Made by a program: the position numbers and the translations under genes. This document shows positions 1,915 to 51,604 of a stretch of 64,000 bases of DNA, piece after piece. This DNA comes from Raillietiella orientalis. Its lineage: Eukaryota. The first letter of the stretch is position 1; each line of letters starts with the position of its first letter. The notes beneath the pieces are model-generated. The model saw only the letters and a list, made by a program, of their open reading frames with translations, was not told where the DNA came from and made no database searches. The stretch covers positions 248,001 through 312,000 of the forward strand of contig JAYWIR010000072.1 in NCBI GenBank assembly GCA_036172245.1. The letters run 5' to 3'.

Positions 1915-4909
1915 ACCCACACCGGCTTTCGGCGAAGGGCTGAGGAACGACCGGGCATACCACCACGCCCGTCTTTACTCTAGGACTCCCGACGTTCGAC
2001 GCCTGGCGGAGTATAAAGCTGGGGCTGAGCGACAGACCTGGCAATCCGGGTCGCCCAGCTTGCTGGACGCTCAAGGCCAAGAATGCTCAGCTCCGGCGAG
2101 AATAAACCGCATCCTGCGGGACTATTACTCCTGCTTGTACGCGCGTAGAACAACAGAGAACGCCGTGGCGCAGCGCCTGCTGCCCCAAGGCGCCCCCCCG
2201 CTGCAGGAGGAGCAGGCACATGAACTCGCGGAGCCTTTCTCGATGGCGGAGATCGTCTCCGCCATCCGAATGCTCCGAAAGAAAAAGAACCAAAGAAAGA
2301 CGGTCTGCCCGCGGAGTTCTACCAAGGCATCGTGGCGGAGCTGGCCCCTTGGCGCATCGGGTATGCATGCTGCTCCGAGAACAAGGGGACGTCCCCAAAT
2401 CGTTCCGGTCAGCGAGAGTACGTCTCCTACCGAAAGGAGGAGACAATCGCAACGTAGGCAGCTGCCGTCCCATCACAGTAGTGAATGCGGATGCGAAGTT
2501 GCTTGCCAAGCTTTGCGCTGAGCGACTGGGACGGGTGGCGGAATCCGTGGTCAGTCCGTAGCAGACATATGCTGTTCCCGGACGAAGCATGGAGGCCAAC
2601 CTGTTCCTCGCCAGTACATGGTGGCAGTTGCAACAAAGCGAAGACCAGAGAGGTCAAGAGCATCCTGGATTCTCCTCTGACCATGGAGGGGACGCCATTC
2701 ATGGAAGAGCCGCGCCCGGTGCCCTTGCGGTCGCAGTCGATCTGCGTAAAGCGTTCGATTGCGCCGACCAGGAACTGCTTCTGGGGCTCCTGGAACGCTT
2801 GAGATTCCCGGCCGTCTTCCGGGCTTACCTGCGCTCCTGCTGGCGCTTCGCTCTGATAAACATCTCTTTTAGCGGCCGGCACGTGTACGGCGTGCCGGTT
2901 CGGCGTGGCATAAGGCAGGGTGACAGTCTGAGCCCCATGCTCTTCAGCATCTACTTCGAGCTGGTGCTGAGGGCATACAGGGAGACTCTGGCAACCCTGC
3001 CAAGCTCGTGTCCCGGCACGCCTGGCGTGTAGGCCTACGCCGACGACCTTCTGCTCCTGCTCCCCGGGTCCACCCCGGCGTCGGCGCTCGAAGATTTCTT
3101 TGAGTTGCTGCGCCGCGGGACGGGCCTCGAGGTGAACAGAGAGAAAACTTCCATCGTTCCAACATCACCACAACTTTTCAACAGTACGGCGTGGGCCGGA
3201 TGGCCGGACTGGATCCGCTTGGGGATCCCCACGGGCAGGTGATTCAAGTACCTTGGCGCTCCGTTGAGGGACTTCTGCGTTGCAGAAGCCTGGTCCGACC
3301 GTCTCCAAAAGGTGGAGTTGGCGATCGGCCCGTTTCGGAACGGCAAGTTTTACTTGCAGGAGCATGCGGCGGTGTGGAACGCATTCGCGGCCCTCCTCCT
3401 CCGCCCCTTACTTTTTGTTTGTCCCGCCCCTCTGACCATACAGGGACGGACCAAAGCCCTCTTGAGGACTGCCCTTTGGGGCACAGCGGGGTCGCGATTC
3501 CGATTGAAAGACTTTTGCGCTCCACGCAAGGATGGTGGCTTGGGCCTCCTTACGTTGGAGCGCATCCAACTTCAAACAACAATTCGAAAGTTAACCCTTG
3601 CGGCTAGCTTATGGATGACGCCATGGTGCCATCCTGCACGGCTCCTCGCCAGAAGAGTGACCGGCTGCGGAGGATTGTCCTCGATCCTCGTGGGCTACCA
3701 GCGCAGCCTCTCCAACTGTGGTTTCGATTTGCGCCAGATGGTCTCCCTGATGAGGGAGAATACCTGGATCTCCTGCATTCCCGCGAACTGCACTTCCTGG
3801 CTTCAGGAGTCAGCTTCCGCGTGGGCTAAGATCAACGGAACGAGCGAGGCGGAATACAACTGCCTACGACGAGGACCGTACGCTCGACAGCCGCTGCAGG
3901 ATTTTATCAACACGCCCCGGAAGTTTCTGTGGGCTTCTTTCAGCCCCCTTGCCCCCGTTCTGTCTTACCTGAAAAACAGTAGGAGCAGCAACGAGCTGGC
4001 ATCGTGGGAAGTGTCCTGCCTCATCCGAGGCAGGAAAAAACCTTTAAAGGCGTGGACGACTCAAGAGCTCACGGACGCTGCCACTCCGAGCGTCCAGCCT
4101 CACGGACTTGCGCGCTGGGGAGAGCTGCTCGCAATATCTCCGTAGGAGGTAAAGTGGCTTCCAGCGTGTTGGGATTGCGGCACACTTCCGTTGAAGTGGC
4201 AGAAGACGGCGTTGCTATTTCTGCACTCGGGACTGTTAAGCAGAGCACCCCTGTCTCACTGGACACTGGGGGATGTGGATGCCCGCTGTGTCGAGTGCGG
4301 AGAAAGAGAAACCTTCCCGCATCTCACCCTCGAGTGTGTCGCCCTGGATGGACTCTAAAGTCGAATCGCCCCAATCCTCCATCTTCCAGTAGGCGACCCT
4401 AAGGAAATTTACCGTCGCCTCTTTCTGCGTGACGGCCTGCGCCCCGCTGCGTCTCTAGCAGTCCTCTGCTGCGTGCGCGGCATTGTGCTAAGGTGGCACG
4501 CCAGAAGAAGAGGCCCAAGATGCAGGGACGCCATCCACTGGACGACGATCTCTTTAGAGAAGGCGACAAGGTGGCGTCTACCTTTCAGAGTTAAAACAGA
4601 ACTTGACTGCATCCTTAACAGGATGCGGAGGACCGACCCAGGCGCCCAGTGATCCCTTCCCTGCCCGCCCTCCTCCCCATACAACTGTTTCCCTCCCCGT
4701 TATCTCTCTTTTTGTTGGTTGTTGTTCTAGTTTTCCCTTCCCATGCGCCTCGGGAATGGACCTAACCGGTCTATGCACAGGTAAACTACACGTCGAGCAA
4801 GGTGGGAGAACCCAGTGTTTCCCCACATAAAACATCTTTCTAAAGACTTCATTATCTAATTTTTGTAAAAAATTAGAATAATAAATGCCCTGGCATATCC
4901 GGGTGGCAA
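1915..4909 (+). pseudogene. LINE family B, 3' part: linker + RT + C-terminal zinc finger + 3'UTR, disrupted
   Basis: RPITVVNADAKL, AVDLRKAFD, GIRQGDSLSP, AYADDL, FKYLG and CVEC...HLTLEC are spread over several frames, with stops near 2559, 3030, 3240 and 4143. Ends in the terminal hairpin at 4880-4909. Confidence 0.9.
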
Positions 4910-5975
4910 ACTTCGGCTGGGGCCGAACATTCCTGGCCCTTGTCGTCTATCAGGCATGCTGCTCCGGACTGCCAGACCTGACGCTCGGCCCTCTCCTTGT
5001 ACTCCGCGAGACGCTCGACATCCGCGCGTCTCGAAAACGTGCGGGCCTGAAGAAAGTCTCTACTGTTGGCCACGCCCTCTCCGAAACCGCGTGGAAGCCG
5101 GTGCAAGGGGAATTGGCAACAGAACTCGCGGACAGATCTTTTGAGATCGTCCCAGTCCGCAAGTTCTTGAATGGCAAAGCCTCGGAGGTATCCACGTAGA
5201 TGCTCCGCAGCCTCCGGTTGGCTAAGCCAATCCGCCTGCATCCTCCAGTTTTGCAACGGAGGCCCCCTGCCTGTCGGAAGGATCTGAAACTCCAAGCTGT
5301 GGTGGTCAGAATGCCTAGTCAACAATCTTCCTCTCCTACCCACACGCGAATGCAGGTTTTCATCGAGGAAAACGTGATCGAGCGATTTTTCTATTCCAGG
5401 TTTGCTGACCATCAAGTTGGCGGCGTGCACGGACGCGCACATCTCGATGGCAAGCGCGCGTTCCCTCGGGCGGCTCCAATCCTCGGAGAGCAGGCGGACG
5501 TTGAAGTCCCCATCGACGAGGTGCGCCACTTGGAAGCCGGAGTTGTTAAGCCAGGGGCTCTTAACCTCACCAAGGAAAGCTACTCTTTCTTCAAGGTAGC
5601 GAGAGCCACTCGGCGCGTAGACGTTCGTAACGACGAGATCGATGGACTCGGTCCACTTAATGACAAGCTGGCCTATCCGCCCGTCGTCATCAAAACGAAC
5701 AGTACGCTCCGCTTACGCTATTTTTCCTCTTACAAGGAACGCGACGACGCACGTGTGTGCGCCGCTGCACCGCCAATGTAGCGTTCCGCCTGCGCGCTCC
5801 TCGATTTTGGCTGCCTCCTCGTCGGAGATTACGTGAATCTCCTGCAGGAGCTCGAGTTCGAAGGGGCGCAGGGCGTTGGCTACTAATCGCCTCTTTTCGT
5901 CGTTCTGTAGTCCGTTCACGTTCCAACACGTTACGGACAGACGACCAGAAGACGCGATTCCTCGCTTTTCTGCTG
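4910..5975 (-). pseudogene. LINE family C ORF2 5' part (APE endonuclease + linker), cut at GQECSAPAEV
   Basis: CWNVNGLQ, LLQEIHV, GDFN, LDHVFLD and SDH motifs in ORFs 5713..5919 and 4873..5529. Confidence 0.88.
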
Positions 5976-7885
5976 GGAAGTTGGCGGCTTTTTGCTCGCT
6001 TTATCCAGCGAGCAGACGGCGAGCAGCACTACTGGCTGGAGGGGACGGTCACCACCGTCCTGCGTCGTGCTGCATGCATGTAATGCCTCCACGCCAGGCT
6101 TAACCCCGTCGGGTTTCGTGGAAACTTCGCGTTGCTTCGGGGCGAGCGTTGCCTGGCTGCATACTTTTCATCGGCGCGCACACGCTTTTGAACGAGTTGT
6201 CCTCGTCTCGGTGATCGGAACGGCATCCATTTCGGAGTACGACCGGCGCTTGTTCGATCGGGTTTCGGCCTTCCGCGAAGTAGAAACAGGTTCTACTGGA
6301 TTGACAGCTGTCCTGTTGTCGTTTTTCGTCACCAGAGCATCGCTTTTGGTGACGGCTGCTTTCCCGGCGCGCGCGTTTTCAACGTGCTCACGCGCAGTTG
6401 CACGAGGGACCTTTGCTGAAGTCTTCTTTACTTCATTACGGTTCCTCACTTCGCGTGGCGCCGTAAATAAAGATTGTGCTCCATTGCCATCTTTGAAGCC
6501 ATTCGCGTCTTTAGACGGGAGCACTTTCAATGACTGCGACACGCTCGTCATGGACGCTGTCTTCGAAAGGGCTATTAATCCCTTCGTTGGCATGGCATTC
6601 GCGTCAGTCGAGAGCTTTTTCTCCGACTGCGACGGCGTAAGATTTTTCTCCGCTTTCGCGGTGTTGGAACGCGACGCGGATTTTTTTTCGCCGACTTCCG
6701 AAGACGACACGGCACAACTCTTCTTACCCGATTTGGGCTTCTCAGCCACTGCACGAGGTGAAGGAAAGGATCTCACGGTACTGGAAGTGTCGTTACCGCC
6801 GTGGTTTATCGGCTTCCCGCCGGTTGCTCGAACTCCGAGAGAGCCGGGCGTGCTTGGGAAGGACAGCTAGTGCGCCTAGGGGGACTTACCATTGCCCGGA
6901 TTCCCCGCACCCTTTCTTTTGCGGCTCCCCTGTCGCGATAGGGGCGCGCAGGGCTTCGCGTGCGAGGTTTCCTGCTGCTTTCGGGCGACATTGCGCCTCG
7001 CGTCTTTACGGAATTTCTGCCGTGAGGTCTCCAGGTTTTTTGCGAATTTTTTCTATTCATCCGCGCTTTGTTTTTGAAGATGGAGCTATGCGGCTGCCTT
7101 TTTTCGCCAAAGATCCTCCAATTTTTCAATTGGTGCCCGGATAGTTTGCAATAACGGCATTTTCCAGAGGGGGATTTATATAAACAATGCCCTTCCTTCC
7201 CGCATTGCTCGCACGTTCTTACTTTGCCCACGAACCACAGGTGAACGACCGTGTCTTTCACCTGTAGTATAATGGGCAGCAGACGGCGTTCCGGCATTGT
7301 AAGCCGGACTCCAGCGACTCTGCTGTGTATGGACGAGAAGTCCTTGAGGCTGCTACGCACCCTCAACAGCGCATGGACCGTGGCGAATTTCGCTAACGCG
7401 TTCCGAATATCAATATCCGAGATTTCCGACCCGATGTCGAAAATCTCCGCCACAAATGAGTCGTCCATGGCGGCCGGGAAGACCTTCTGGGCATGGATCG
7501 AAAAAGGGGTGCGCAGCAAGCGTTGCACAAGTGCAGCCTCTTTGCAACGCACCTTGAAATAGCCCATATCCTTTACGGGCATAATGGGGAGGAGGTTTTC
7601 CTTTCGCACGCCAGCACGGGCCAGTTCATCGTTGGACTGATTCCCGTCGCGCGCAGAAAGAAAACCACTCACCTTATATCGGAGAGCAGGTCTAGAGCCT
7701 TGGGCTACGTATGCCTGCAAATCCGACTCGTCGAGTGGTTTCCCTTTGACGGCTGCTGTGGCAGCAACGTCAGCAAAACTCCTCTCCATTGGCGAGGAAC
7801 ACGAAGTGGAGGCGGCCGTAGCTTCCGCGATTGCATATCCGGATGCTGTTCCTCCAACTTCAGTAGCTTCGGGTTGGGTCGACAT
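5976..7885 (-). pseudogene. LINE family C ORF1, frameshifted
   Basis: ORFs 6806..7909 and 6168..6776. CEQCGKEGH and CRYCKLSGH knuckles; ALRYKVSG motif related to the other ORF1s; 5' motif GGACGTGGTTTT at 7957. Confidence 0.85.
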
Positions 7886-7957
7886 CTTCGTCAAAATGTA
7901 CGACGCCAAGATAAAGCGGATGAAAGCACGGAGACGAGAGCGAAGAAAACCACGTCC

Positions 7958-8432
7958 GCACTCGATTGAAATCTCCGGCTATCAGGTGAGCCTTTCGCAC
8001 GTTAGTATCCGCCAGCCAGTCGCGCTTCAGGGTTTCCAGCAGCCCGGTGCGGCTGCTGTCTCCCTGTTTTCCGTTGGGTGCGTACACATTCGTGACGATC
8101 AGTTCGATGGAGTCGGACCAGCTGAGAATCAGCTGACCGACCCGAACGTCGTCAGCGAAGCGCACGCCCTTCACGGCAGCGTCGGTGGCTGGCTTCAAGA
8201 AGAACGCGACCCCGCAGGTGTTGCGGGCGCCGCATCGCCAATACAGTCGACCCCCCGCGATCGTCTCGATCTTCTGGACGTCTGCCGAGGTGATCACGTG
8301 GATCTCCTGCAGCAGGGCCAGGTCGAACTCACGCAGGGTGTCGGCCGTATCTCGCCTGTTACCGTCGTCGCGCAGCCGGTTTACGTTCCAACAGGCGGCG
8401 CGAATCCGATGGCGACTAGAGAGGCCAGGTGT
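7958..8432 (-). pseudogene. LINE family A APE N-terminal half, cut at AGDFN
   Basis: ORF 7860..8297 is nearly identical to the start of the intact ORF2 (IETIAGGRLYWRCG...HLIAGDFN). Confidence 0.9.
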
Positions 8433-10161
8433 TACTCCTGGAAAGATGGCGATGCGCCGTCCGCCACCTGTAGGGGCTGGACGAAAGATGGAGGAGGAGG
8501 GTAAGGCGCTGACTGCAACTGTTCCCCCCCTTCTATGGGTAACGGCGCCTCGAGCGGGTCATCCTCAGGTGGATTCGCGCCTACCTGTTATCCCTCCTCC
8601 ATGGGAGGTGCTGTTCAGGCTCGGCGACTGCAAGGAGGACTTCGTCCCCCTGCTCACCCTCCTCCATGGGGTGGCCGGCCCGACGGCTTCCGAGGGTGAG
8701 AGTTCCCCCTCCGGGATTCCCACGCTTCCGCTACCTTCCTGCTTCTCCTCCTCGCTGGTAGAGGGGAGGCGCCTCCTGGGTCTCTGGGAATTGCGTCCCG
8801 ACTTCCTGAAGGGTGCCTCCGAGGAGCAGGATGTACTTTCGGTTACCAGATCAAACTCACCTGTGGGGCCTTCTTCGCCGGAGCCGGCCTTCGCACGGCC
8901 TTGCGCGAGGGGTTCTCACTCTCGGCCAGCGTGGCCGCGATCTCTTCCGCCGCCTGCGCAAACGCAGTGTCTTCGGCTTCGACCGTTTGCTCCTGTTTGC
9001 ACAGAGGGTTCGCCGTCGCGAACCTCGGGCACGGCGGAGACGGCGAGGGGTGGTTCGTCGCCCCGGGTGGCAGTCTCGGGAACGGTTACGCGTTCCAGTG
9101 CCACCAAACATTCACGCAGAGTCTTGGTGCGCATCCCAGGTATTTTATTTTGCCGGCTGTCTTTTTTACCGCCTTCGCGGGTTCCGCAAGGGGCACCTTG
9201 TTTTCCTTTCTTGCCTTAACCAGCTGCCAGCCGTCCTGGACTCCCGCGTCTTGGGAAGGTTTTTCTTCCGACGCCTGTGTGGGAGGAACAAGGGCTTGCG
9301 GTTGCTGCCGGCCAGTATCGCTTTTTGGCCTTTCGACCAATTTTCCGCGTCTTACCTGCGCTTTCTTGGCGGCAAACGGCACCGGAGTGGAGAGTTTAGG
9401 GCACACGCGGCGTACGTTGGCCTTCTCCCCGCATTAGTGGCACACAATGTTCGGGCACCTCTTACGAAGGTGTCCTACTGCGTTGCAGTAGCCACAAAAG
9501 CGGGGTTGCCAAACTTACCAGAGTTCTACGACTTCGTCATTAACCTCTAGTTTGTGGGGAAGCCCACTATCCTTCTTAATTGTCACACGCGCGGCGGCCT
9601 GCCCTCCGAAAAGTCTATCGTAGTCATCAAAGATTGTGGCCTTTGGCCATAGCGCGTGTACTTCGCCGTATTTTTTCAGCTGATCACCAACCGCATACCG
9701 CGTGATGTGGCTGGTGATCCCAGTCAGATGGACCACTAGGGAGCGGTCTATCGTGACTGGCAGGATCTTGCGCATGTCCACGTTCAGCGGGGTAGTGATG
9801 AAGCTTTGCGCAAAGTTCATGTCCTTCCAGACAAGCTCGACGCGCTGACCCCCGCTGAGCACGGATAGACCGTCAATAGCCTTCTCTAATACGTTGGCGT
9901 TCTGCAGCGCCTTCAAAAAAGCGCGTGCAGTTCGCCCGTCAAAGAGATTGCCTACCTGGTACATTAAGCTGGGCTTGTACCGAGCTGTCCGGTAGGCTGC
10001 CATCTCGGCCATGGCTTGCGCGCTAGTCGCGGTCACTATGGCGCTCCAGCTCCTCGCCTTGGGCGACGAGAGGGATTCCGGGGCGTACGCCCCTTTTTCT
10101 GTAATCTGTGGGGGTAGGCAAGGCTTCCTACACCTACCTCCATCGTGATTTCTCCAGGCAT
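8432..10161 (-). pseudogene. LINE family A ORF1, disrupted
   Basis: ORFs 9515..10288, 9086..9406 and 8916..9134 align with ORF1 66-1817 (AAYR..YKPSL, HALWPK, LPHKLEV, KTLREC). 5' motif GGACGTGTTTT at 10256. Confidence 0.88.
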
Positions 10162-10256
10162 CGCTGATATCGGAAAACAAAGATGTTCCACACAAAAAAC
10201 TCCACAAAAAACCCGCTTCCTTTCGACTCACTCGGGAGCGACGGAAAAACACGTCC

Positions 10257-11746
10257 GCTCGCCACGGATTTAAGGAGGGGGCTCGCAACCATACGGCCTA
10301 TTTACAGGCCCGACGGTACGAGAGGACCTCCAATGTCCGTCGACTGACCGAATATCAAGCCGGGGCCGAGCGTCAAGCATGGAAATCAACCCAACAGCCA
10401 AAGAACCCATAAACAAAGAGCATCAGCCTGATTCCCTTACCATTGCCAAAATCCTCTTTCTTCATCCATGACATGGAACACGCTCTGGTGCGCTCCAGCC
10501 CGCATCCTCGCCAGCCGTGTATGCACGACGCAAGGACTCGCGACTTTCCTTCTGTGCCCCGGCAGGAAGGTCAGGAGATGCGGCCTCCTCCTTGGACGCA
10601 TCGAAGCCCTGGTGGAAGAAAACGGCTGGACGATATGCAGCCCCGCCAACTCCTCCGCTTGGCTAGAGGAATCCGTTGCGACGTGGGCCAACCTGAACAA
10701 CCCAGGAACCGAAAATTGGAAACGCCTGCGATTCGGCCCCAACGCCTGCTGCACCCTACGGAGCACTCTAGAGTGTCCCGCCAAGAGCACGTAGGCGGAG
10801 ATCACCCCTTTAGATTCGACGCTTTCTTCCTACGCAGGGCGCTAACCAGCGGCTGGACGCCAAAGTGACAAGTTTCCTGCCGAATCGCAGGAAAAGGAAA
10901 AAAGATGAGCGGTTGGACCATGGGAGAACTGGCAGACGCCACGACCCTTAGTGCCCCCCCGCGTGAATTTCTGAGATATGTTGAGCTGCTCGGCATCCCG
11001 AAGGATGACCTGAAGTGGCCTCCAGTTCTCATCGGATCCAGGCTTCTTCCTCTAAAGTGGCAAGAGACGGAGCTGCTACTGTTGCACTGGGGTCTACCCT
11101 GCAACGCGCGCCGCTTCCTCTGGACGCGGGGAAGTGTAAGGCCTGAGTGTGCCAGGTGCGGGGAGGGGAAGTCGCTCCTCTACCTTGTATTGTATTGTGA
11201 TGCCCTCCGACCCCTTTGGGAACGGTTCGGGACGGCCCTCGGTCTCACTACGGGCAGTTAACACAGAGACGTTTTCCGCCTCCTCTTCGTGCGGGACGCC
11301 CTGCAGCCAGCAGCAGCCCTCGCAGTCCTGTGCAGCGTTCAAGGCATCGTGGCGGCATGGAGCGATGCCAGCAGCGAAGATGTAGATTGGAACGAGAGGG
11401 AAGTCATCCAGCACGCAGTACGCTTTTTTCGGAGAGCTGCCCAATGGCCACATCTGGGAAGAATGTGGACAGACCTAGAGGGCTTCCTTCGACGGATGGG
11501 CCCTCTGCATAGCGTCCGGTGATCTCTTCCCTTCCCTGCAAATTTTTTTTTTTTTTTCTGTTTGTTTATGCCTTTGATTTTTCTTTTTGTTTTTTCCTTC
11601 ATCCCCTTTCGCTGTCGGGGAGTGCCACGTCGGGTTGCGTCCTGGTGTCTCGACAAGTGGCGTGTCTCAGGCCGCAGTGGAACCTCATACCACCGAAGGT
11701 AGAGAGTTTTTTTCAAATCAACGCTCCAAGCATACTCGGGTGACAA
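10257..11746 (+). pseudogene. LINE family A 3' part with the RT core deleted (linker fused to C-terminal domain) + 3'UTR
   Basis: GARNHTAYLQAR linker to ~10390, then WCAPARILAS...LPLKWQE...CARC...RRMGPLHS. The 3'UTR matches that of the element at 40476-40680. Confidence 0.88.
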
Positions 11747-12627
11747 CACCAAATCCCTGGGGCAGGCTGTGCACAGGAAACTCCTCGCAGAACTTGCGGA
11801 CCGAAACCATGAGGTCTTAGAATTAGAGATTCCGGAGGATGACGCCTCCCAGTACTTAGCGGAGATGTTCCGCCGCACCCGAGATGCGCGTCTTGTCCCC
11901 GAGGGACACGCGACTCCCTGGATGGTGGTCCTTTGTCGCGAGGCATAACCTCGAATATCAACCGGAAATGGTCCGATAGCGTCGACGGAAGTTTCCCTGG
12001 TCTGCCGACCCGTGGGCACAGGTTGGCGTCAAGCAAGACGTGGTCTACGCTTTGGACAATTTCCGGTAGGTCCCCCAACAAGTTGCGCGTGCGCATAGCA
12101 GTGCACAGCTCGTTGGCTGAGTCTTTTTGTCCGCAAGGCACACCTGAGAGCAGGCGGATGTTGAAATCCCCATCGATCAGATGCACTTTGCATACGTTTG
12201 TATCCGCCAGCCAGTCCCGCATCAGGGTTTCGAGGAACCGGAAACGTTCCCCGTACCCGCATCCTCAGCTCGAAGCGTAGACATTGGTCACTACATGGTC
12301 GATCGATTCGGATCACCTAAGGATGAGCTGGCCATCCCGACTGTCGTTGTCGAAGCGTACGTCCTTGACGAAGGCGGCAACTGCTGGCTTCATAAAAAAG
12401 GCGACGCCACAGGTGTTGCGAGCGCCGCATTGCAAAAACAGACGACCCTCTGCGATCCTTTCGATCTCCTGGGCTTTCTCCGCGGTGATCACGTGGATCT
12501 CCTGCAGGAGCGCCAGGTCGAATTCGCGCAGGGTGTCGGCCGAATCCCGCCTGTTGCCGTCGTCGCGCAGCCCGTTAACGTTCCAGCAAGCTACGCGGAT
12601 CCCACGGCGACAGGCGAGTCCAGATGT
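11747..12627 (-). pseudogene. LINE family A-like APE domain, cut at SLPQGFG
   Basis: CWNVNG, LLQEIHV, GDFN, VDHVLLD and SDH; ORF 11713..12222. Confidence 0.88.
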
Positions 12628-14306
12628 TAATCCTGGGAAAGTAACAATAGGGCTCCCGCCACCTATTGGGGCGGGACGCTAGGAGGAGGGGGTGCGTTGC
12701 GCACCGCTTATCCCTCCTTCATGGAGGCCGAGCCTTCTTCAGGGCCGTGCAGAGGAAGAAGGGTTTTACCCACCTGTACTTCCTCCTCCATGGGGGTCGC
12801 CAGCTGCACGGTGTCTGGGAATGAGAGATTCCCACCCTCGCGTCTCACGTTGCCGGCTTCCCCCTCGGTTGCCATTTCATCCTCCTCCTTCTTGATTTGT
12901 ACGGACCTCCTGGGATTCTAAGACTTGCGTCCCGTCATCTTTGGTGGCGCCTCCGTTGAGGACGCAGTTCCTGCATCCGGAGCATTCCTCGCGGCCGGTC
13001 TTGGTAAGCTCATCCGCGACTTCTTCTCACGGCCTTGCAGTTCTGCCTCGAGTTCTCCCACCGCCTGCTGGAAGGCGGCCTCGTCGATCGCGTTGAGCGC
13101 GGCGCCTGGTTCCCCATCTGTTTCTCCAGAGTGTTCGTCATCGACCGTCGCAGCTTCGGCGGACGAAAGGGGGGAATTGCTCGCCCGGTGGCGGCATCGA
13201 GTGCCCTTACACGCTCTAATGTTATTGAAGAGCGGAGTTTTTCGCGACACGGTTTTTTGCGCTGCGTTTTTGTTTTCCCCGCGCATCGTTTGGAACTCCC
13301 AGGCTTCCAACTGGGCTGTACCATCTGCCAGCCTTCGCCGTCGCCAGCGTCGTCGGGAGTGCTCTGAACCGACGTTTGCTGGGATGGCTTAGGGACTGGC
13401 ATCTGGCTCCTCACAGCCTGCTTCATGGTATTTGTCTCTCTCGACCGTTTCCCCTTTGCCTTTTTGGCAACTAAAGGGACCGGGATTTCTCTTTTTGGGC
13501 ACACCTTGCGGATGTAGCCCTTTTTTCCACATAAGTGGCATTGGATGTTATGGCACAGCTTTTTTAAGTGCCCTGTAGCATTGCAGTTGCTACAATACTG
13601 GGGCTTTCCCACGCACGTAGCATCGACTTTTTCTTCGCCGATATTTAGTTTGTGGGGAAACCCATTATTCTCCGGTATTGCGACGCAAGCAGCGGCCATT
13701 TCACTGAATAACCTTTCGTACGCTCCGACCACATTGGATTTGGCTTAATACGCGTGCACACTGCTGTGTTTTGACAACTTCTTATGAATGCTGGTTTTGT
13801 CCATTTGGAGTGATACGCCCGTGAGGTGGACCACGACGGACCGGTCCTCTGTCACAGGGAAGATCCTGCGGCGATTACCGTAATGGGGTTGTTTAGCAGG
13901 CGCTGTTCCAGACTTGCCTCTGTGCAAGTCAGCTCAAGTCGTGCCCCCCACTAAGGACGGAGAGGCCTTCGATGTCTTCCTCCCTCACGTTCAGTCTTTG
14001 CTACTCCATTTGAAATTAGCGTGCAATTTTCATGTCGAACACGCTGCCTACCTTGTGGTTCAGCGACGGTTTGTAGCCGCTGTCCTTGTAGGCAATCTGC
14101 TCCGCTATTGCAGCCGGGGATATTGCAGGAACGACGGCACTCCAACTCCTCGTCGCTGCCGAAGAGGGTCGCGAAGGGACGGTTTCCCCCGAATCCGATG
14201 GGGCAAGTGCCCCGGATTCCTTGTGGGCGGACACCCTCACTTTCATGCGTGGTGGCGAGGAAGTCACCTCTCCTCTCCTGATTTCCATCGCGGTGTCCTC
14301 AGGCAT
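12627..14306 (-). pseudogene. LINE family A-like ORF1, disrupted
   Basis: ORFs 14016..14306, 13010..13732 (CSNCNATGHLKKLC, CHLCGKKGY) and 12918..13310. Confidence 0.85.
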
Positions 14307-14364
14307 TTTTTTCGTGGGGCACCGGCGCTCCTACACCAGACAAAAGCACCGAAAACCTTCGCAC

Positions 14365-15015
14365 TAACTAGACCGCTGAGCAATGCCAAACCACCTCCGC
14401 TCTCTAGAAGGACACAGGTTTGAAGCGCAACTGTGCCCGGTGTGGAGAGCGGTAAGGCTTCTGCACCCTTTAGTTGACTGTGATGCCCTTCGGCCCCTGT
14501 GATGACGCTTCGGTTCCACCTTAGGAATCCTGGAAGGTAACTTTCCCAGAGACGTTTTTCGGCTTCTCATCGTGCGAGACGCCCTGCAGCCAGCCGTTGT
14601 AATGGCATTTCTGTGCTGCGTACCCGGCATTGTGGCAGCTTGTACTGCATTCGACGAAGCAGAGGATGTTAACGGAGAGAACGTCATGGAGTATTCTGCT
14701 CGCTTTCTGTGAATAGCATCCCGACGGCCCCAACTAAGAAATCTCTACCAAAACCTCGTCGGCATACTGCAAATAATGCAGCCTCCCCACAACGGAGGGT
14801 GATCTCTTCTTGACCCTCCAAATGACTAGTGTTTTTAATTTTTCTTTTTTCTTATTTATATTTTTTTCTGCAATGTCCATCCTTTGACGTGGAGTGTCAA
14901 GTCGGTATGTGCAACGTCCACGCGACAGCTTCTTAGATTTATTGGCCGCAGCGGGTCCTTCCACCGCAAATTCTGTAAGGTTTTTTAATAAACGTCTCTG
15001 TTTGACCGGGTAAAA
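14365..15015 (+). pseudogene. LINE ORF2 C-terminal zinc-finger fragment + 3'UTR
   Basis: CARCGE...HPLVDC and RDALQPA remnants; degenerate terminal motif AATAAAcgtctctgtttgaccgggtaaaaa at 14987-15015. Confidence 0.75.
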
Positions 15016-35600: not shown

Positions 35601-35835
35601 TTTTCATTTCATTTGTCCGTTGAACGATGTTTGCACGATTTTCTCAAACGTGGTGGTTCTCGTGGAGTCACTGCTATAGTCATTACTCATCTTTCTGCGT
35701 TTACCTTCGAATAAATAAAAAGTATTTACTGAGAGTGACATATAAAGTCCTGGTACAGGCTTTAGACAGAAACTTTGTAGACAAGTTAGTCAATTTTCTG
35801 TTAGAGAGCGCTAAAGAATACATGACATTTGATTT

Positions 35836-37940: not shown

Positions 37941-37974
37941 TTACGCAGTACAACACTTTGTGCACTCTAGGGCA

Positions 37975-39313
37975 GACGTCTTTTCTCGGTGCTCCTCGTG
38001 CCAGAAAGTCTCCCTTAGTGCAAGCGTAGTGTGGTTCGGTAGTCGACCAGGCAGCGATGCCTGAAACGACCACCAGGGAAGGCCAGGTGGCAGTGACAGC
38101 GCCTCCTCCAGAAGCGATGGAGAGCCAGGAAGCGGCGGCAACATCGTCCTTAGAGACGATGGAAGTGGGGGCATCCGCCCCCAAAGAATCGATCCCCGCT
38201 GCAGCGCGAACGTGGAGCACCGTTGTGGAGGCGACAGAGCCTGCAGCCACTGCGGAATGGTCAGCCTACCTGGAGGAGGGGTGTAAACCCTCATTGCTCT
38301 ACAAGGTAGGCAATCTATACTGTTCAGAGAGTGCGCGAATTTTTTCGAAAAGGATTCGGGCTCTGGTTGTTAAAGAGGAGGTGCTCATCGCTATGACCAT
38401 CCGCAGCGGGGGTCAGTACGTTGAGGTCATCTGCAAACAAGCAAAGTTGGCCCAACGACAGCTAAAAACTCTCGTGGTGATGGGGACGCGCAGGCTTCTC
38501 CCCACTACGGTGGACCGCAGCATGGTGGTCCACCTATAAGGCGTCACCGCGCGGATGCGCAAGGAACAGGTTCGCGCCGCGTTGGAGCAATACGATACGG
38601 TTCACGCGCTGTGGAAGAAAGTTAGTCCCTTTGAGGACTACACAGGGATGCAGCACGGCTTCACGGCTGCACGCGTGACCGTTCAAGAGGGCTGCACTCT
38701 TCCCCACAAACTGGTGGTCGATGGCGAAACCGTCGTCCTCTGGTATATGGGAAATCCGAAATACTGCGGATTCTGCAATACGTCGGGCCACCTCAAAAAG
38801 TGGTGTCTAAACGTGCAGTGCCAAGCATGCGGCACAATGGGTCACACGAGAGAGGTGTGCCCCAAAGCAGGTGTGTGGGTGGTTTCAAAGAGAAAACTTG
38901 AATAACGCGCCCGGTTGCTGCAGAAAAGGCTGGCGGTGAAAGCTGCCGCGAAGGCCGTGCCACCCGCGCCCTAGGCCCAGGTTGCACCCGAGACCACGGC
39001 AATCAAGGCCGATAAAGTCGAGGGAACCAGCCAAGAGCCTAGGTGGCAGGTAGCAACGGCAAGAAAAAGCAAAAAGGAGAGAAGATTGGAGTAAAAAATT
39101 ACCAGCAGAAGAAAAAAGAGCAGGGTAGCTCGATAATTTAAGAGTGCAGCGTCGTCGTGGAACGCATTCCCGATGTTATTTAACGCTGCCAGAAAGAACT
39201 CGCTGCTACCGACGACCACCCCTCTGTTGACTCTGTCAACAGCGAGGGGAGCGAGCCGGCGGCGGCGTCCGTCATCGACACCAACATCGATGACGCAGCT
39301 TTCGCGCGTGCGG
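37975..39313 (+). pseudogene. LINE family E 5' end + ORF1 (stops at ~38537 and ~38903), truncated by a chimeric junction
   Basis: ORFs 38057..38539 and 38555..38905 (CGFCNTSGHLKKWC, CQACGTMGHTREVC); 5' motif AGACGTCTTTT at ~37974. Confidence 0.87.
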
Positions 39314-40475
39314 AGCCCAAGTCGGGCATCACCCACGTGCGGAAGCCGACGAGGAGGCGACTCCAACGGAAAAGGGTAACCAGGGGTCAGCAATGCCCTC
39401 TGAAACCGCCGAACCTGAACCACCCGCACCAATGGATGTGGGCCAACAGGTACGAACAACACCCCCTTCGCACGGGCAGCCGGAGACGTCGGCACGAAAG
39501 AAGGATGGGGAGTTGGTGGGCAAGTCGCCAACCCCGTCCAGCGACCCGCCCCAAAAGGTGGAGGGAGCTCCACCGCCAGGTTCCCAGGAATAACACCTGG
39601 ACTCGCCTGTCGGCGTCGGATCCGCGCGGCCAGTTGGAATGTTAACGGGCTGCGCGGCGACGGAAAAAGACGAGATACAGCCGCCACCTTGCGAGATTTC
39701 GACCTGGTACATTTGCAGGAGATCCACGTGATCACCGCAAAAGACGCCCAGGAGATCGAAACGATTGCGGGAGGCTGGTTGTACTGGCGATGCGGCGCCC
39801 GCAACACTTGTGGGGTCGCGTTCTTCCTAAAGCCAGCCATTAACGCGGCCGTGAAGGGCGTGCGCTTTGGGGACGACGGACGGATCGGCCAACTGATTCT
39901 CAGATGGTCCGATTCGATCGACCTCATCGTCACCAATGTGTACGCTCCTAGCGGTAAACAGGGATACCAGCAGCGCAACGCGTTACTGGAAACCTTGAAG
40001 CGCGAATGGCTGGTGGACGCGGACGTGCGAAAGGCGCATCTCATAGCAGGGGATTTCAACGTCCGTCTGCTCTCAGATCAGCCCGGAGCACAGGGTAACG
40101 CGATCAACGAGTTGTGCGCCGCCATGCGCGCGCGCAACTTGTTGACAGAAATAAGTGGGATGGTCAGCAGCGTGGACCACGTCTTCCTCGACGAAGACCT
40201 GTGCACACGGGTCGGAAAACGAGGGACACTTGGATCGACGCTGTCGGAGCATTCCCGGTTAGTTTTCGAGATGCGCCCGCGCGACAAGGGACCGCCATTC
40301 AGGAATTGGCGTATTCCAGGGGACTGGACGCGCCTGTCAGGAGCGAAAGAACATCTGCGCGAATTCCTGTGAGGCGTCAGCCTCCAGAGTCTCGCCGATT
40401 GGGACCTATTTAAGGACTCGGTCCTGGAGTTCTGCGAACAGTTCCCTGTGCAACGTCTGCCCCGGGGATTCGGCG
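39313..40475 (+). pseudogene. LINE family A ORF1 tail + complete APE, cut at RLPRGFG
   Basis: 39313-39658 is an inverted copy of 1-346 with identical ORF translations. ORF 39689..40372 carries QEIH, GDFN and VDHVFLD. Confidence 0.92.
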
Positions 40476-43400
40476 TTGCCACCCGGGTACGCCCGGGGCG
40501 TTTATTGATAAACTTTACATGCGTGGTACAAGGCCCCACCACGGCCGTAAACACAGGACCTGTCGGGACACCGGGACGCAGCCCGGTGTGGCACTCCCCG
40601 ACAGCGAAGGGGGATGGGGATGAGACAAAAAGTAAAATAAAAAGAAACAAACAAAAAGAAGTTGGAGGGCAGGGAAGGGATCACTGGTCGCTGTGGGGAG
40701 GGCCCATCCGTCGAACGACGCCCTCGAGGTCAGCCTGCATATTCCCCAGTTGGGGCCATCCGGCAGCTCTTCGCAAGAAGCGTTTGGCATACGGGATGAC
40801 ATCCCTCGCCTGTGGACCCACTCCTTCGTTGTTGGCGTCGCTCCATGCCGCCACGATGCCACGGACGCAGCACACGGCTGCGATGGCTGCGGCTGGCTGC
40901 AGTGCGTCCTTCACGAAGAGGGGCCGAAGAACGTCTCTGGGGGTGCTGCCCGTAGGGAGCCCGAGGGTCGTCCCGAACCGTTCCCAAAGAAGTCGGAGGG
41001 CAGCACAATCCACAATAAGGTGGGGAAGCGAATCCCGCTCCCCGCACCTGGCACACGCAGGATCCACAGCTCCCCTCGTCCAGTGGAAGCGGCGCGCGTT
41101 GCAGGGTAGACCCCAGTGCAACAAAAGCAACGCCGACTCTTGCCACTTGAGGGGCAGGATCCTGGATTCCTTCATCACCGGGGGCCACTTCAGCTCATCC
41201 CTGGGGATGGCGAGCAGCTCGCCCCATCTTAACAATCCTCGCGGCTGGACGCTCGGGGTCGAGGCGTCGGCCAGTTCTCCTGTTGTCCAGCCGCTGATCA
41301 ACTTCTCCCGTCCCTCGATGCAGCAGGAGACTTGCCACCTTGGCGTCCGGGTGCTGTGAAGTGCCCTCCTTAGGAAGGGTAGCGCCGTAGCTAGGCAGGT
41401 CGTCTCTGCCCACGTGCATCTTGATGGACTCTCCAGGAGATTCCGCAGCGTGCAGCGGGCGTAGGGGCTGCATCGGAGACGATTCCACGTCTCGTGGCTT
41501 CTCTGGTTGACTACTGCCCACGTTCCAATATTCTCCTCCAGCCAGGCGGGGGAGTTGGCGGGGCAGCAAACCATCCAGCTGGTCTCCTTGGCCAATGTTG
41601 CCATGCGCCCGAGCAGTAGGCCGCATCTTCGCATCTTCCGGCCACGGCTCAGAAGAAATGACGCGAGTCCATCGCACCGGGACACACGGCTGGCCAGGAG
41701 GCGGGCCGGAGTGCACCAAGGGGTGCTCCACATCTTCGCTGCGATGGCGAGGGTTCGCCACCGCAGCTGCTTCTCCTCGCGCTCCAGCGTCAGGAGGCCA
41801 AGACTGCCGTCCCGACGCGGAGCGCACAAGTCCTTCAGTGGGACTCGGGGCCTCCCCTTGCCCCAAAGGGCGATACGAAGGAGGTCCTTCGTCCTCTTCT
41901 TGGATTCCACGGTGGGGGGGCAAACAAAAAGCAAGGGGCGGAGGATGGGGGCCGCGAAGGCGTTCCAAACCGCGGCCCGTTCCGGCAAGTGAAACTTGCC
42001 CTCCAGGAACGGGCCGATCGCCGTCTCGACTTTTTGGAGGCAGCTGGACCACGCTTCCGCAGGGGAGTAGTCCCCCAACGGCACACCAAGGTACTTGAAG
42101 CACCTCGCCGTGGGGATCCCCAGACGGACCAAGTCCTGCTGCCCTGCCCACGCCGCACCTATTGGCACAACCGACGACTTCGCCCTGTTAACCTGCAGTC
42201 CGGTCCCGCGGCTGAGCAGATCGAAGAAGTCTCCGACCGACTTTGCCGGGGTGGACATTGGCAACAAAAGCAGAAGATCGTCGGCGTACGCTGCTACGGC
42301 GGGCGTGCCGGGGCACGAGCTCGGCAATGGGGCCAAAGTCACCCTGTACGCTCTCAGCACCAACTCAAAGTAGGTGCTGAAGAGCAGGGGGCTGAGGCTA
42401 TCTCCCTGCCTTAGGCCCCGCCGCACCGGCACGCCATACACCTTTTGACCGCTGAAAGAGACGGTAATTATCGCATTCCGCCAGCAAGAGCGCAGGTAGG
42501 AGATCAGGGAGGGTGGAAAGCCCATGCGACCCAGGAGCTCCAAGAGAAGTTCCTGGTCTACACAGTCGAACGCCTTGTGGAGATCGACTGCGAGCGCTAG
42601 GGCCCCCTTGCCCGCCCGGGGTTCCCTTCCCAGCCCGGCTGGCGTCCCCGAAGTGGGGTTGCTGACTTTCCCTATCCCTTTCTTCTCTCTTCTCTGCAGG
42701 TGCACCCATGTGCTCGCGAAGAAGAGGTTGGCATCCATACTTCGCCCGGGAACAGCATAAGTCTGCTCCGGGATAATTACGGATTCTGCCACCTGCCCCA
42801 GACGCGAAGCCCATAGCCCTGCGATCAACTTGGCGTCCGTATTCACGATCGTGATCGGACGCCAGTTCTTTAAATTCCTGAGGTCTCCCCCTTTCGGCAG
42901 GAGCCTCACTCTGGCTGACCGAAACGAGGCGGGAACATCGCCTTCGTCTCGGATCAGCCTGATCAACTTTAGCAGCAGGGGTGCCAGCTCTTCCGCGAAG
43001 CTCTGAAAGAACTCCGCGGGCAAGCCGTCTTCCCCTGGAGCTTTACGCCTCTTGAGCCTTTTGATACCGACGAGAATTTCGCCGGTGGTAAAAGGCTCGT
43101 CGAGGCTTTCCATCTCCTCCTCCCCTATTGCCGGGGCGTCATCCGGAAGCAAGCGCCGAGAGGCGTTTCGATCCGGGGGCTCCCTGGCGTAAAGTGAGGA
43201 ATGAAAACTCCGCACGAGATGCCGTACCGACGCCGGGGACGAGCATTCCCGGCCCTGGTCGTCCAGCAAGCTGGCCGACCCGGATTGCCAGGCTTGGCGT
43301 TCGGCCCCGGCGCGGTACTCGGCCAGGCGACGGACATTAGGGGTTCTCTCGTAACTACGAGCCTGTAAATAGGCCCGATGGTTGCGAGCACCCTCGCCGA

Positions 43401-44475
43401 ATCCGGGGGGCAGGCGATCCAGGGGGAACTGCTCACAGAACTCGCGGACCGATTCCTTAAAAAGGTCCCAGTCCTGGAGATTCCGGAGCGTGACGCCTCT
43501 CAGGTATTCGCGAAGGTGTTCCTTCGCACCTGAGAGTCGCGTCCAGTCCCCTGGCAGACGCCAGTCCCTGGATGGCGGTCCTTTGTCGCGAGGCCGCATC
43601 TCGAAAATTAACCGGGAATGGTCCGACAACGTTGACGCAACCCTCCCCCGTTTGCCGACCCGTGAACACAGGTCAGCGTCGAGGAAGACGTGGTCGATGC
43701 TGCGGACCATTCCCCTCTCACCCGCGAACAAGTTGCGCGCACGCACGGCGGCGCACAACTCGTTCATCGCGTTCTCTTGTGTGTCTGGCTCACCTGTTAG
43801 CAGACGGAGATTGAAATCTCCCGCTATCAGGTGAGCCTTCCGCACGTTCGTGTCCGCCAGCCAGTCGCGCTTCAGGGAATCCAGCAGCCTGGTACGGTCG
43901 CTGTATCCCTGTTTACCGCTGGGGGCGTACACAGTCGTGACGATCAATTCGATCGAGTCGGACCAGCTGAGAATCAGCTGACCGACCCGACCGTCGTCAT
44001 CGAAGCGCACGCCCTTCACGGCCGCGTCGATGGCCGGCTTCACGAAGAACGCGACCCCGTAGGTGTTGCGGAGGCCGCACCGCCAATACAGCCGACCCCC
44101 CGCGATCGTCTCGATCTCCTGGGCGTCTGCCGCGGTGATCACGTGGATCTCCTGCAGCAGGGCCAGGTCGAGCTCACGCAGGGTGTCGGCCGTATCTCGC
44201 CTGTTACCATCGTCGCGCAGCCCGTTGACGTTCCAACAGGCGGCGCGAATCCGACGGCGACTGGCGAGCCCAGGTGTTATTCCTGGGAAGATGGCGATGC
44301 GGCGTCCGCCACCTGTTGGGGCGGGACGCTAGGTGGAGGAGGAGGGTCAGGCGCAGCTTGCACCTGGTCCCCCTCCTCCATGGGTAACGGCGCGTCGAGG
44401 GGGTCACCCTTAAGTGGGGTGGCGCCTACCTGTTGGCCCTCCTCCATGGGTTCGCGCTGCTCAAGTTGCGGTACG
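40476..44475 (-). mobile_element. 5'-truncated family A LINE with intact ORF2, ORF1 tail and complete 3' terminus
   Basis: ORF1 tail ...AASPSSQE* (stop 44277-44279), uninterrupted ORF2, ~200-nt 3'UTR and AATAAA+hairpin at 40506-40476. Confidence 0.93.
40681..44277 (-). CDS. LINE ORF2: APE endonuclease + reverse transcriptase + C-terminal CCHC finger (L1/Tx1 type), ~1198 aa, no AUG at the N-terminus
   Basis: The 1153-aa ORF extends 45 codons upstream in frame (TPGLASRRRIRAACWNVNG...LLQEIH). Motifs: GDFN, IDH, SDH, KAPGEDG, NWRPI, DLHKAFD, GLRQGDSLSP, YADD, KYLG, CARC..H....C. Confidence 0.95.
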   Translation of the reverse strand, partial: TPGLASRRRIRAACWNVNGLRDDGNRRDTADTLRELDLALLQEIHVITAADAQEIETIAGGRLYWRCGLRNTYGVAFFVKPAIDAAVKGVRFDDDGRVGQLILSWSDSIELIVTTVYAPSGKQGYSDRTRLLDSLKRDWLADTNVRKAHLIAGDFNLRLLTGEPDTQENAMNELCAAVRARNLFAGERGMVRSIDHVFLDADLCSRVGKRGRVASTLSDHSRLIFEMRPRDKGPPSRDWRLPGDWTRLSGAKEHLREYLRGVTLRNLQDWDLFKESVREFCEQFPLDRLPPGFGEGARNHRAYLQARSYERTPNVRRLAEYRAGAERQAWQSGSASLLDDQGRECSSPASVRHLVRSFHSSLYAREPPDRNASRRLLPDDAPAIGEEEMESLDEPFTTGEILVGIKRLKRRKAPGEDGLPAEFFQSFAEELAPLLLKLIRLIRDEGDVPASFRSARVRLLPKGGDLRNLKNWRPITIVNTDAKLIAGLWASRLGQVAESVIIPEQTYAVPGRSMDANLFFASTWVHLQRREKKGIGKVSNPTSGTPAGLGREPRAGKGALALAVDLHKAFDCVDQELLLELLGRMGFPPSLISYLRSCWRNAIITVSFSGQKVYGVPVRRGLRQGDSLSPLLFSTYFELVLRAYRVTLAPLPSSCPGTPAVAAYADDLLLLLPMSTPAKSVGDFFDLLSRGTGLQVNRAKSSVVPIGAAWAGQQDLVRLGIPTARCFKYLGVPLGDYSPAEAWSSCLQKVETAIGPFLEGKFHLPERAAVWNAFAAPILRPLLFVCPPTVESKKRTKDLLRIALWGKGRPRVPLKDLCAPRRDGSLGLLTLEREEKQLRWRTLAIAAKMWSTPWCTPARLLASRVSRCDGLASFLLSRGRKMRRCGLLLGRMATLAKETSWMVCCPANSPAWLEENIGTWAVVNQRSHETWNRLRCSPYARCTLRNLLESPSRCTWAETTCLATALPFLRRALHSTRTPRWQVSCCIEGREKLISGWTTGELADASTPSVQPRGLLRWGELLAIPRDELKWPPVMKESRILPLKWQESALLLLHWGLPCNARRFHWTRGAVDPACARCGERDSLPHLIVDCAALRLLWERFGTTLGLPTGSTPRDVLRPLFVKDALQPAAAIAAVCCVRGIVAAWSDANNEGVGPQARDVIPYAKRFLRRAAGWPQLGNMQADLEGVVRRMGPPHSDQ

Positions 44476-45598
44476 GGAGAACGCCTGGATCTCCTGCCTC
44501 CCAGGGAACTACTCCGCCTGGTTGCACGAGTCAGTCTCCACCTGTGTAAAGATCCACGTTCCGTCGGGCACAAGAAACACTTGCCTAAAAGGGCACGCCC
44601 GCTGGACGCTGCAGGAGATCGTGCAGTCCCACGACAAGCTTCTGTGGGCCTTGATAACCCCCCTCGCCCCAGTGCTGCCCTTCCTTGTGAATGCCAGGGA
44701 CAGTAGCGAGCAGGGGAAATGGACCGTGTCCTGCACTATATGCGGCAGGACACAATCGATAAAGGCGTGGACATCTCGGCAGCTAGCTGACGCTGCGACG
44801 CCCAGTGTCCCGCCCAACGGAATTCGACGCTGGGGTGAGCTACTCGGACTATCTCCGGAGGAGATAAAGTGGCTCCCAGCGTCCTGGAACAGTGGATCCC
44901 TCCCCCTTAAATGGCAGGAGGTGGCGTTGCTTGTAATGCACTGGGGTTTACCCTGTAAAGCACGCCTGTATCAAACCACCCGGGGGCCGTGGATCCCCAG
45001 TGCGACCGGTATGTGGAAAAAGAGACCTTTCCCCACCTTCTTCGGGAGTGGGGTGCCATCCGCCCTTCATGGGATCGCCTTGCGGCGATCCTGGATTTCC
45101 GCGTATGTGGCCCTAAGGACGTTCTCAGGTGCCTCTTCTGCAGTGAAGCCTTGTCCCCCCCCGCTTCTGTAGCAGTCCGCTGCTGCATTCGAGGGATCGT
45201 GGCGGCTTGGAGCGCCACCAGAAGAAGACGTCAGCCAACTGGCAACGCCTTACTTTTCACTCGCCTATTCGTGCTAGCTGTTTGCAAGTGGCGCCACTTA
45301 GGCGCAGAGAGGACTAAGCTTTTCCGGATCCTGAATAGGATCTAGAGGACCTATCCCGGCGCACAGTGATGCCATCCCTGTCCTCCCACTTCTGAATCAT
45401 TTGTTCCCTCCCACATTCCAACTTTTTGTTTGTTTTTGTTTTTTCTTTCCCAACCTCCGCGCATTGGAAGGACCTCGCCGGCATAGTGCCGGCAGCCAGC
45501 AAGCTGTTTTGGTGTGGTGAACCCTTGGGTTCTCCACTCGATAATGTTTTGCGCTTTTTTTCGTTTTAGATGAATTCCCCGGCATATCCGGGCGAAAA
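44476..45598 (+). pseudogene. LINE family B-like ORF2 C-terminal part + 3'UTR
   Basis: ENAWISCLPGN...LPLKWQE...WGLPC (ORF 44414..45172); terminal ccccggcatatccgggcgaaaa at 45577-45598. Confidence 0.85.
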
Positions 45599-51571: not shown

Positions 51572-51604
51572 GCCCTAGAGTGCACAAAGTGTTGTACTGC
51601 GTAA

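Follow-up and report, generated by a model that had tools for sequence, protein, structure and literature searches.

Nested LINEs in the window

The stretch of Raillietiella orientalis DNA considered here (the window: 64,000 nt; GenBank assembly GCA_036172245.1, contig JAYWIR010000072.1, positions 248,001 to 312,000 of the forward strand) is densely occupied by long interspersed nuclear elements (LINEs). When it was searched by tblastn with an intact open reading frame 2 (ORF2, from copy E4) and the intact 592-aa ORF1, dozens of LINE fragments were found on both strands, and blocks of LINE pieces with 55–62% G+C are interspersed with AT-rich patches. Several copies of one set of these elements, named here family A, adjoin in antisense orientation the ORF2 of related copies at one and the same position, the codons of an LPxGFG motif, and this site and its junctions are the subject of the present analysis. 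Junctions and termini were tallied in this one 64-kb window alone, and all counts refer to it. The copies involved are listed in Table 1.

The ORF2 of E4 has the Pfam domains Exo_endo_phos and RVT_1, and its translation contains the GDFN and SDH motifs of the endonuclease, the YADD box and the C-terminal CCHC motif (CARCGERDSLPHLIVDC). In a search of solved structures the top match was human L1 ORF2p (E = 7e-50), and because it far outscores R2 (2e-15), family A is placed by this comparison in the L1 superfamily (L1/Tx1) of LINEs. The LPPGFG residues of E4 lie between the endonuclease and the part aligned with the L1 reverse transcriptase (E4 ORF2 aa 353–750, L1 ORF2p aa 392–772).

Table 1. 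Family A copies, adjoining elements and target-site features in the window (APE, apurinic/apyrimidinic endonuclease; RT, reverse transcriptase; J1, J2, J3 and J4, junctions described in the text).
Feature	Position	Strand	Description
E1	1..1914	(-)	full 5' end, intact 592-aa ORF1 (zf-CCHC), ORF2 start; continues beyond window; abuts T1 (J3)
T1	1915..4909	(+)	ORF2 from LPxGFG site to 3' end, ...CCGGGTGGCAA at 4909
E3	4910..7957	(-)	diverged relative; codons 1-173 share 57% nt identity with E4
E2	7958..10256	(-)	full 5' end GGACGTGTTTT, ORF1, ORF2 aa 1 to ~171; abuts T2 (J4)
T2	10257..11746	(+)	ORF2 from LPxGFG site to 3' end; internal deletion ~aa 350-862
T3	11747..14398	(-)	full 5' end GGAGGTGGTTT, ORF1, ORF2 aa 1-311, cut at J2
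G	14399 to ~15017	(+)	
T4	39306..40475	(+)	ORF1 C-terminus and ORF2 aa 1-311; copy entered by E4
J1 target copy	40457..40475	(+)	19 nt CTGCCCCGGGGATTCGGCG, codons L-P-R-G-F-G, end of T4
E4	40476..44447	(-)	5'-truncated within ORF1 C-terminus
E4 3' terminus	40476..40506	(-)	AATAAA, 5-bp hairpin, then CCGGGTGGCAA; without poly(A), joined directly to target
E4 ORF2	44328-40684	(-)	open stop to stop, 1215 aa: APE, RT with YADD, C-terminal CCHC
Intact unoccupied site	43395..43413	(-)	in E4's own ORF2, CTGCCCCCCGGATTCGGCG, LPPGFG aa 306-311
K	44448-45598	(+)	

The target site and its junctions

An uninterrupted copy of the site had been claimed from the letters alone and was located at 43395–43413 in the ORF2 of E4, where the target sense reads ...CGC CTGCCCCCCGGATTCGGCG AGGGTGCTCGC...; with up to three mismatches allowed, it is the sole match to the canonical site inside any ORF2 of the window. 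The LPxGFG site of E3 is also unbroken, yet 5 of its 19 positions differ from the canonical 19-mer. Among the family A ORF2 copies that reach the site (at least 70% nt identity to E4) four of the five are broken there, and the intact one is the youngest, E4.

Two junctions involve element 3' ends. At J1 (40475/40476) the ORF2 of T4 is cut after GGATTCGGCG (context ...CGT CTGCCCCGGGGATTCGGCG) and is followed from 40476 on by a LINE 3' terminus (...AATAAACGCCCCGGGCGTACCCGGGTGGCAA), that of E4, in reverse complement. At J2 (11746/11747) the plus-strand 3' terminus of T2, ...GGGTGACAA, adjoins the antisense ORF2 of T3, which is cut after GGATTTGGTG; in target sense, ...AGC CTGCCCCAGGGATTTGGTG runs into the T2 3' end in reverse complement. 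Both cut ORF2 after the identical alignment nucleotide. The other two involve 5' termini of the form GGACGTGTTTT, which finish at 1914 (E1; J3, 1914/1915) and at 10256 (E2; J4, 10256/10257). At J3 the reverse-complemented 5' end of E1 gives way to an ORF2 that resumes with ACCCACACCGGCTTTCGGCGAAGGG..., and at J4 that of E2 gives way to one that resumes with GCTCGCCACGGATTTAAGGAGGGG..., in both cases at the Leu codon of LPxGFG, within 1 nt. The pairs of 3' and 5' termini at the motif, as described in the sequence-only reading, were thus recovered, and all four are antisense to the target ORF2.

On the consensus, the upstream and downstream ORF2 pieces share 19 nt (17–20, depending on how the first bases of the 5' junctions are assigned), in agreement with the overlap of some 15–20 nt noted earlier, and the shared stretch would correspond to a target-site duplication (TSD) of ~19 bp (17–20). 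By our own arithmetic the probability of such a coincidence by chance is ~1e-8: in an ORF2 of 3.6 kb, both 3' junctions would have to fall at the same nucleotide and strand, the two 5' junctions within 1 nt of each other, and the pairs 19 nt apart in TSD geometry. The arrangement probably means that family A integrates by target-primed reverse transcription and that, in related ORF2 copies, it does so at a single defined position within the LPxGFG codons.

In a region so rich in repeats, false joins between copies have to be considered. In a check of sequencing runs, one (X1) had 39% of the words of the stretch and two others (X2 and X3) had none; likewise, 345 short contigs from X1 and 0 each from X2 and X3 aligned to 40376–44330. 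X1, the sole run containing the stretch, may be the source of the assembly itself. An assembly artefact is nevertheless hardly credible, as the junction type is seen four times in versions that are 20–45% diverged from each other, a pattern that mis-joins would not give, and the depth of X1 contigs is 9.8 in the bin spanning 40475/40476 vs. 10.3 in the next one. Six loose ends of X1 contigs were listed, none of them at the site, and there are at least 211 further ends, from which no inference is drawn in either direction.

Independence of the insertion events

The sequence-only reading regarded the four junctions as independent and named a single ancestral junction spread by segmental duplication as the alternative. 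Large duplications do occur in the window (22151–39313 vs. 63624–50216, ~95%; 1–352 vs. 39658–39306, 99.7%), and J1 and J2 are colinear across the junction at 74% identity (10474–12705 vs. 41730–39515). Derivation of all four junctions from one or two ancestral ones, by segmental duplication or gene conversion, is still very unlikely in view of the codon positions. A broken ORF2 is free of selection, and descendants of a shared junction should differ equally at all positions. Between T4 and T3, differences amount to 0.200 (124/620) at positions 1+2 and 0.397 (123/310) at position 3 (chi-square p = 2.5e-10); the corresponding values are 0.214 and 0.339 for E4 and T2 (p = 1.8e-5), 0.408 and 0.602 for T1 and T2 (p = 5.5e-9), and 0.288 and 0.509 for the ORF1 of E1 and E2 (p = 6.5e-19). 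The true ~95% segmental duplicates of the window, used as a control, lack such an excess, with 80/1636 differences at positions 1+2 vs. 54/817 at position 3 (ratio 1.35) and nominal significance in one of four blocks (p = 0.017). The third-position excess between the broken copies therefore indicates that their lineages were active while they diverged and that the breaks came only afterwards. Furthermore, stops are present in T2 and E2 but not in their intact counterparts, E4 ORF2 and E1 ORF1, and T2 is both insert and target, which requires at least two events.

The extent of decay differs from copy to copy. There are five in-frame stops in 309 codons of T3, three in 351 codons of T2 in addition to its large deletion, and three in the 564 codons of E2 ORF1. 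The 909 codons of T1 contain 12 disabling changes (five stops and seven frameshifting indels), T4 has one stop in 311 codons, and none were found in E1 ORF1 (592 codons) or E4 ORF2. Judged from these counts, the order of decay follows the order of nesting.

Two nests can be delineated, one in which T3 contains T2 and T2 is in turn abutted by E2, and another in which T1 contains E1. T2 thus plays a double role, its 3' end lying at the site of T3 and its own site being occupied by E2; the earlier claim that an older copy is broken by the insertion was borne out, and in this recursive form. T4 is of the E1 type, its positions 39306–39658 being 99.7% identical to E1 1–352, a match of 353 nt that reaches the edge of the window; therefore the copy of E1 type that had gone into the site of T1 was itself later entered there by E4. 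Recursive nesting, with the missing halves lying to the left of the window, would be the simplest reading of the arrangement. Upstream of the switch point at 39306–39313, the ORF1 of T4 is replaced by an element F, whose duplicate is found at 50216–51767, and T4 is accordingly taken to be a chimera or to lie at a duplication boundary.

Each insert and its target might also be a single element inverted in place at a fixed point, by twin priming or otherwise, with a small duplication at the joint. Classical twin priming, as Ostertag and Kazazian are said to have described it in 2001, leaves an inverted 5' part followed by a direct 3' part, and E1|T1 and E2|T2 do show an inverted full 5' part next to a direct 3' part. 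For the partners T3 and G the distances to E4 are not significantly different (p = 0.17), and those of T2 and T3 are similar as well. In third-position distance to E4, however, E2 (21/173) and T2 (136/395) are clearly unlike (p = 1.4e-8), as are the E1/T4 type (101/311) and T1 (457/900; p = 2.6e-8). Together with the contrasts in decay, this means that the partners in these pairs are different elements. Also the inner ends do not pair, aa 171 of E2 being combined with aa 306 of T2 and aa 311 of T3 with aa 1083 of G. J1 is not an inversion within one element, since E4 runs continuously through its own site with an intact ORF2 of 1215 aa and has its own aa 1–311 besides those of the adjoining T4. 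Such an inversion is accordingly highly improbable as a general explanation. It fares best at J2: T2 and T3 are equally far from E4 at third positions (0.344 vs. 0.387, a comparison made without a significance test), and a single element whose 3' part was inverted could therefore account for J2 taken by itself, which makes this junction the less secure one. By the codon-position, decay and age tests, at least three events (J1, J3 and J4) appear secure, and the fourth (J2), counted as equally independent in the earlier claim, is only probable.

Proposed mechanism

Directly after TTCGGCG, the sense strand of ORF2 continues into the reverse complement of the element 3' end, and full-length 5' ends attach 19 nt upstream of this cut, at the Leu codon. 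A first nick would thus fall after ...TTCGGCG on the ORF2 sense strand and would prime target-primed reverse transcription, and a second nick would be made after ...GGGGCAG on the opposite strand. In target-specific LINEs generally, the site is recognized by the APE or by DNA-binding parts of the element (PMC4494074). By analogy with the endonucleases of Tx1, R1 and TRAS, the APE of family A and/or its DNA-binding parts may read the site.

The LPxGFGEG motif is kept across families A, B and E3 in the protein alignment, and selection on the protein therefore keeps the target in place. With the motif conserved across subfamilies at the protein level, each new copy would bring a fresh target with it, and insertions would stack recursively, each of them splitting an older copy.

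Priming by annealing is unlikely because the RNA 3' end (...GGCAA) and the primer (...GGCG) are not complementary. The antisense of the E4 site, CCGGGGGGCAG (43403–43413, plus strand), matches the 3'-terminal CCGGGTGGCAA at 9 of 11 positions. The resemblance is probably coincidental, as the T4 and T3 sites match less well. Priming of an existing CCGGGTGGCAA 3' end on the RNA was considered as well and rejected, since terminus and site are each retained in full at the junctions, and the match at the T4 and T3 sites is poor.

Every insertion in antisense has the further effect of creating a long inverted repeat of ORF2. In the case of E4 (39540–40475 vs. 44330–43395) it measures 937 nt, with 81% identity and arms 2.9 kb apart, and is a potential source of hairpin RNA.

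Limits of the specificity

That family A uses the linker of its own or a sister ORF2 as its specific target, as proposed in the sequence-only reading, holds as far as the repeated antisense insertion at an exact site is concerned. Exclusive use of the site was not observed, and several findings weigh against a strict specificity. Only four of the seven family A termini with visible flank use the LPxGFG site. The canonical 3' end of T1 joins E3 after ...CSAPAEV (aa 372, antisense), the 5' end of T3 joins G at ~aa 1083 (antisense), which could alternatively represent a target deletion on the 5' side, and the 5' end of E3 is found in E2 after GDFN (~aa 171), in sense orientation. Since the window consists almost entirely of LINEs, flanks are skewed towards LINE sequence in any case. 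Finally, no single event with both of its junctions is present in the window, and the TSD of the earlier claim is deduced across different events. For comparison, a LINE is considered target-specific when the target occurs in >20% of the flanks of its family, by the criterion of PMC4494074.

These observations would also be expected if LPxGFG were one hotspot among several, or a chance mimic of a primary target elsewhere, for an element that dwells in LINE islands or heterochromatin with a loose preference. Besides the three of seven termini at other ORF2 positions, other LINEs of the window sit inside LINEs too (B3 at ~aa 70 and D at ~aa 285, both antisense, and B1|B2 as a sense tandem), the break at aa 372 is also shared, and the 3' end of M is located in AT-rich non-LINE DNA. 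We consider this explanation unlikely, given that four junctions of fixed orientation at one nucleotide position are far above chance. Moreover, the site is used by both young canonical 3' ends with visible flank (E4 and T2) and by both exact GGACGTGTTTT 5' ends (E1 and E2). Neither an RNA gene nor any other repeat similar to the 19-mer is present in the window, and no tRNA or Rfam families were found in it.

The shared break at aa 372 follows ...CSxPxxV at the same ORF2 nucleotide at 4909/4910 and at 25011 (duplicate at 60764). At E3 it adjoins the T1 3' end in antisense; beyond the break in C1 lies C2, in sense orientation. As there are just two cases, either a second hotspot or coincidence may account for it. 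The junction of D with C2 was tried as a fifth hit at the LPxGFG site and dropped, because the protein alignment places the D 3' end ~20 codons upstream of the site.

Comparison with known site-specific LINEs

Target-specific LINEs are known for ribosomal DNA (rDNA), small RNA genes, microsatellites, telomeres and other transposons. R1 and R2 of 28S rDNA, as well as homing endonucleases, exploit targets that are kept constant by selection on the product and cannot easily mutate away. The target of family A is fixed by selection on its product in the same manner. Here, in contrast, it belongs to the gene of the parasite itself, and each insertion destroys a copy of the family.

LINEs of the Tx1 clade, reported from animals, are found in other transposons: Tx1 in the piggyBac element Tx1D, Tx1-Mar in Mariner-N4_AMi, Tx1-8_Crp and Tx1-4_AMi in long terminal repeat (LTR) retrotransposons and Tx1-9_AMi in Harbinger (PMC4494074). 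Family A resembles these Tx1-clade elements in being an APE-type member of the L1 superfamily, in having an exact insertion site and a fixed orientation inside a mobile element of many copies, and in successive insertions at one site (PMC4494074). The likeness applies to family A as a member of the L1 superfamily only, and, unlike the targets of those elements, its target is the coding sequence of its own or a sister ORF2 instead of another transposon class.

Zepp and ZeppL of green algae are L1-type elements that target their own existing copies and form GC-rich, LINE-only nested clusters (PMC8226300, PMC3446292), with one GC-rich cluster per chromosome in the case of Zepp (PMC3446292) and an (A)n tail at the Zepp 3' end (PMC3747384). 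Family A is likewise nested in existing copies of itself (T2 in T3 and E2 in T2, E1 in T1, E4 in T4). Compared with Zepp, which is described as forming tandem arrays of 5'-truncated 3' ends, family A inserts in antisense and often at full length; its 3' end, without poly(A), is the hairpin and CCGGGTGGCAA joined directly to the target, and it occupies one exact coding site with a TSD deduced to be ~19 bp. No description of a LINE with a conserved coding motif of its own ORF2 as exact antisense target was found in the literature covered, which did not include the original Zepp papers, where site detail may be given.

In a stronger form, for which our confidence is tentative and short of even, family A would be an obligately self-homing LINE whose integration machinery recognizes the 19-bp LPxGFG stretch of its own ORF2. 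If so, each copy would be the next target, resulting in Russian-doll, LINE-only islands, possibly centromere-like as with Zepp; the kilobase-sized ORF2 inverted repeats could supply double-stranded RNA for silencing, and the family would restrict itself while host genes are spared. Should the pattern hold genome-wide, it would provide a clear-cut example from nature of a parasite whose own constrained gene serves it as a safe haven, would explain how LINE-only islands grow without harm to host genes, and would offer a compact 19-bp target together with its APE for studying sequence specificity in L1-type endonucleases.

Termini and relatives of family A

The ORF1 of family A is of the CCHC type, the intact copy in E1 being located at 1844–66 on the minus strand. 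The 5' terminus GGACGTG(T/G)TTT occurs with zero mismatches at three full-length 5' ends. Eight 3' termini belonging to several families have in common AATAAA, a 5-bp hairpin and CCGGGTG(G/A)(C/G)AA. In the hairpin of these eight termini, 87.5% of the cells are paired vs. 21–45% when the partner is slid, and compensatory changes are present at three of the five pairs. Covariation was not found by RNAalifold in its own fold of the 3' termini; the local hairpin did show it.

In E4 the ORF2 frame starts 48 nt ahead of the stop of the ORF1 frame (44280–44328), and no ATG precedes the endonuclease domain, which suggests translational coupling or frameshifting.

In protein searches the nearest relative is a 619-aa fragment with 67% identity on a 2.9-kb contig, all others having at most 34%. 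The closest named relative is a turtle protein (34% identity by phmmer, 29% in the best BLASTP segment). A metagenome scan for the 3' junction pattern gave 0 matches, a protein-guided one returned seven loci, all of them distant (25–37% identity) and none with comparable junctions, and comparison with the atlas yielded only generic APE-RT clusters.

Other elements and repeats of the window

Other families of the window sit in LINEs at varied places and in both orientations. Head-to-tail sense tandems are formed by the B1 3' end and a B2 that is 5'-truncated to start from ~aa 566 (20054/20055), and B3 likewise comes after the 3' end of K in sense (45598/45599). The 3' end of B3 interrupts another ORF2 in antisense (49642/49643).

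The large inverted segmental duplication (22151–39313 vs. 63624–50216) is composed of several blocks with 94–96% identity and contains LINE pieces as well as AT-rich repeats. Because of it, a number of junctions located in the right half occur twice, and each was counted once. The AT-rich non-LINE repeats at 26990–29178 and 57311–55124, which lie within this duplication and have no Pfam-sized ORFs, are 95.6% identical to each other. An older inverted AT-rich pair, equally non-LINE and without Pfam-sized ORFs, is found at 26990–28170 and 32668–31480 with 73% identity.

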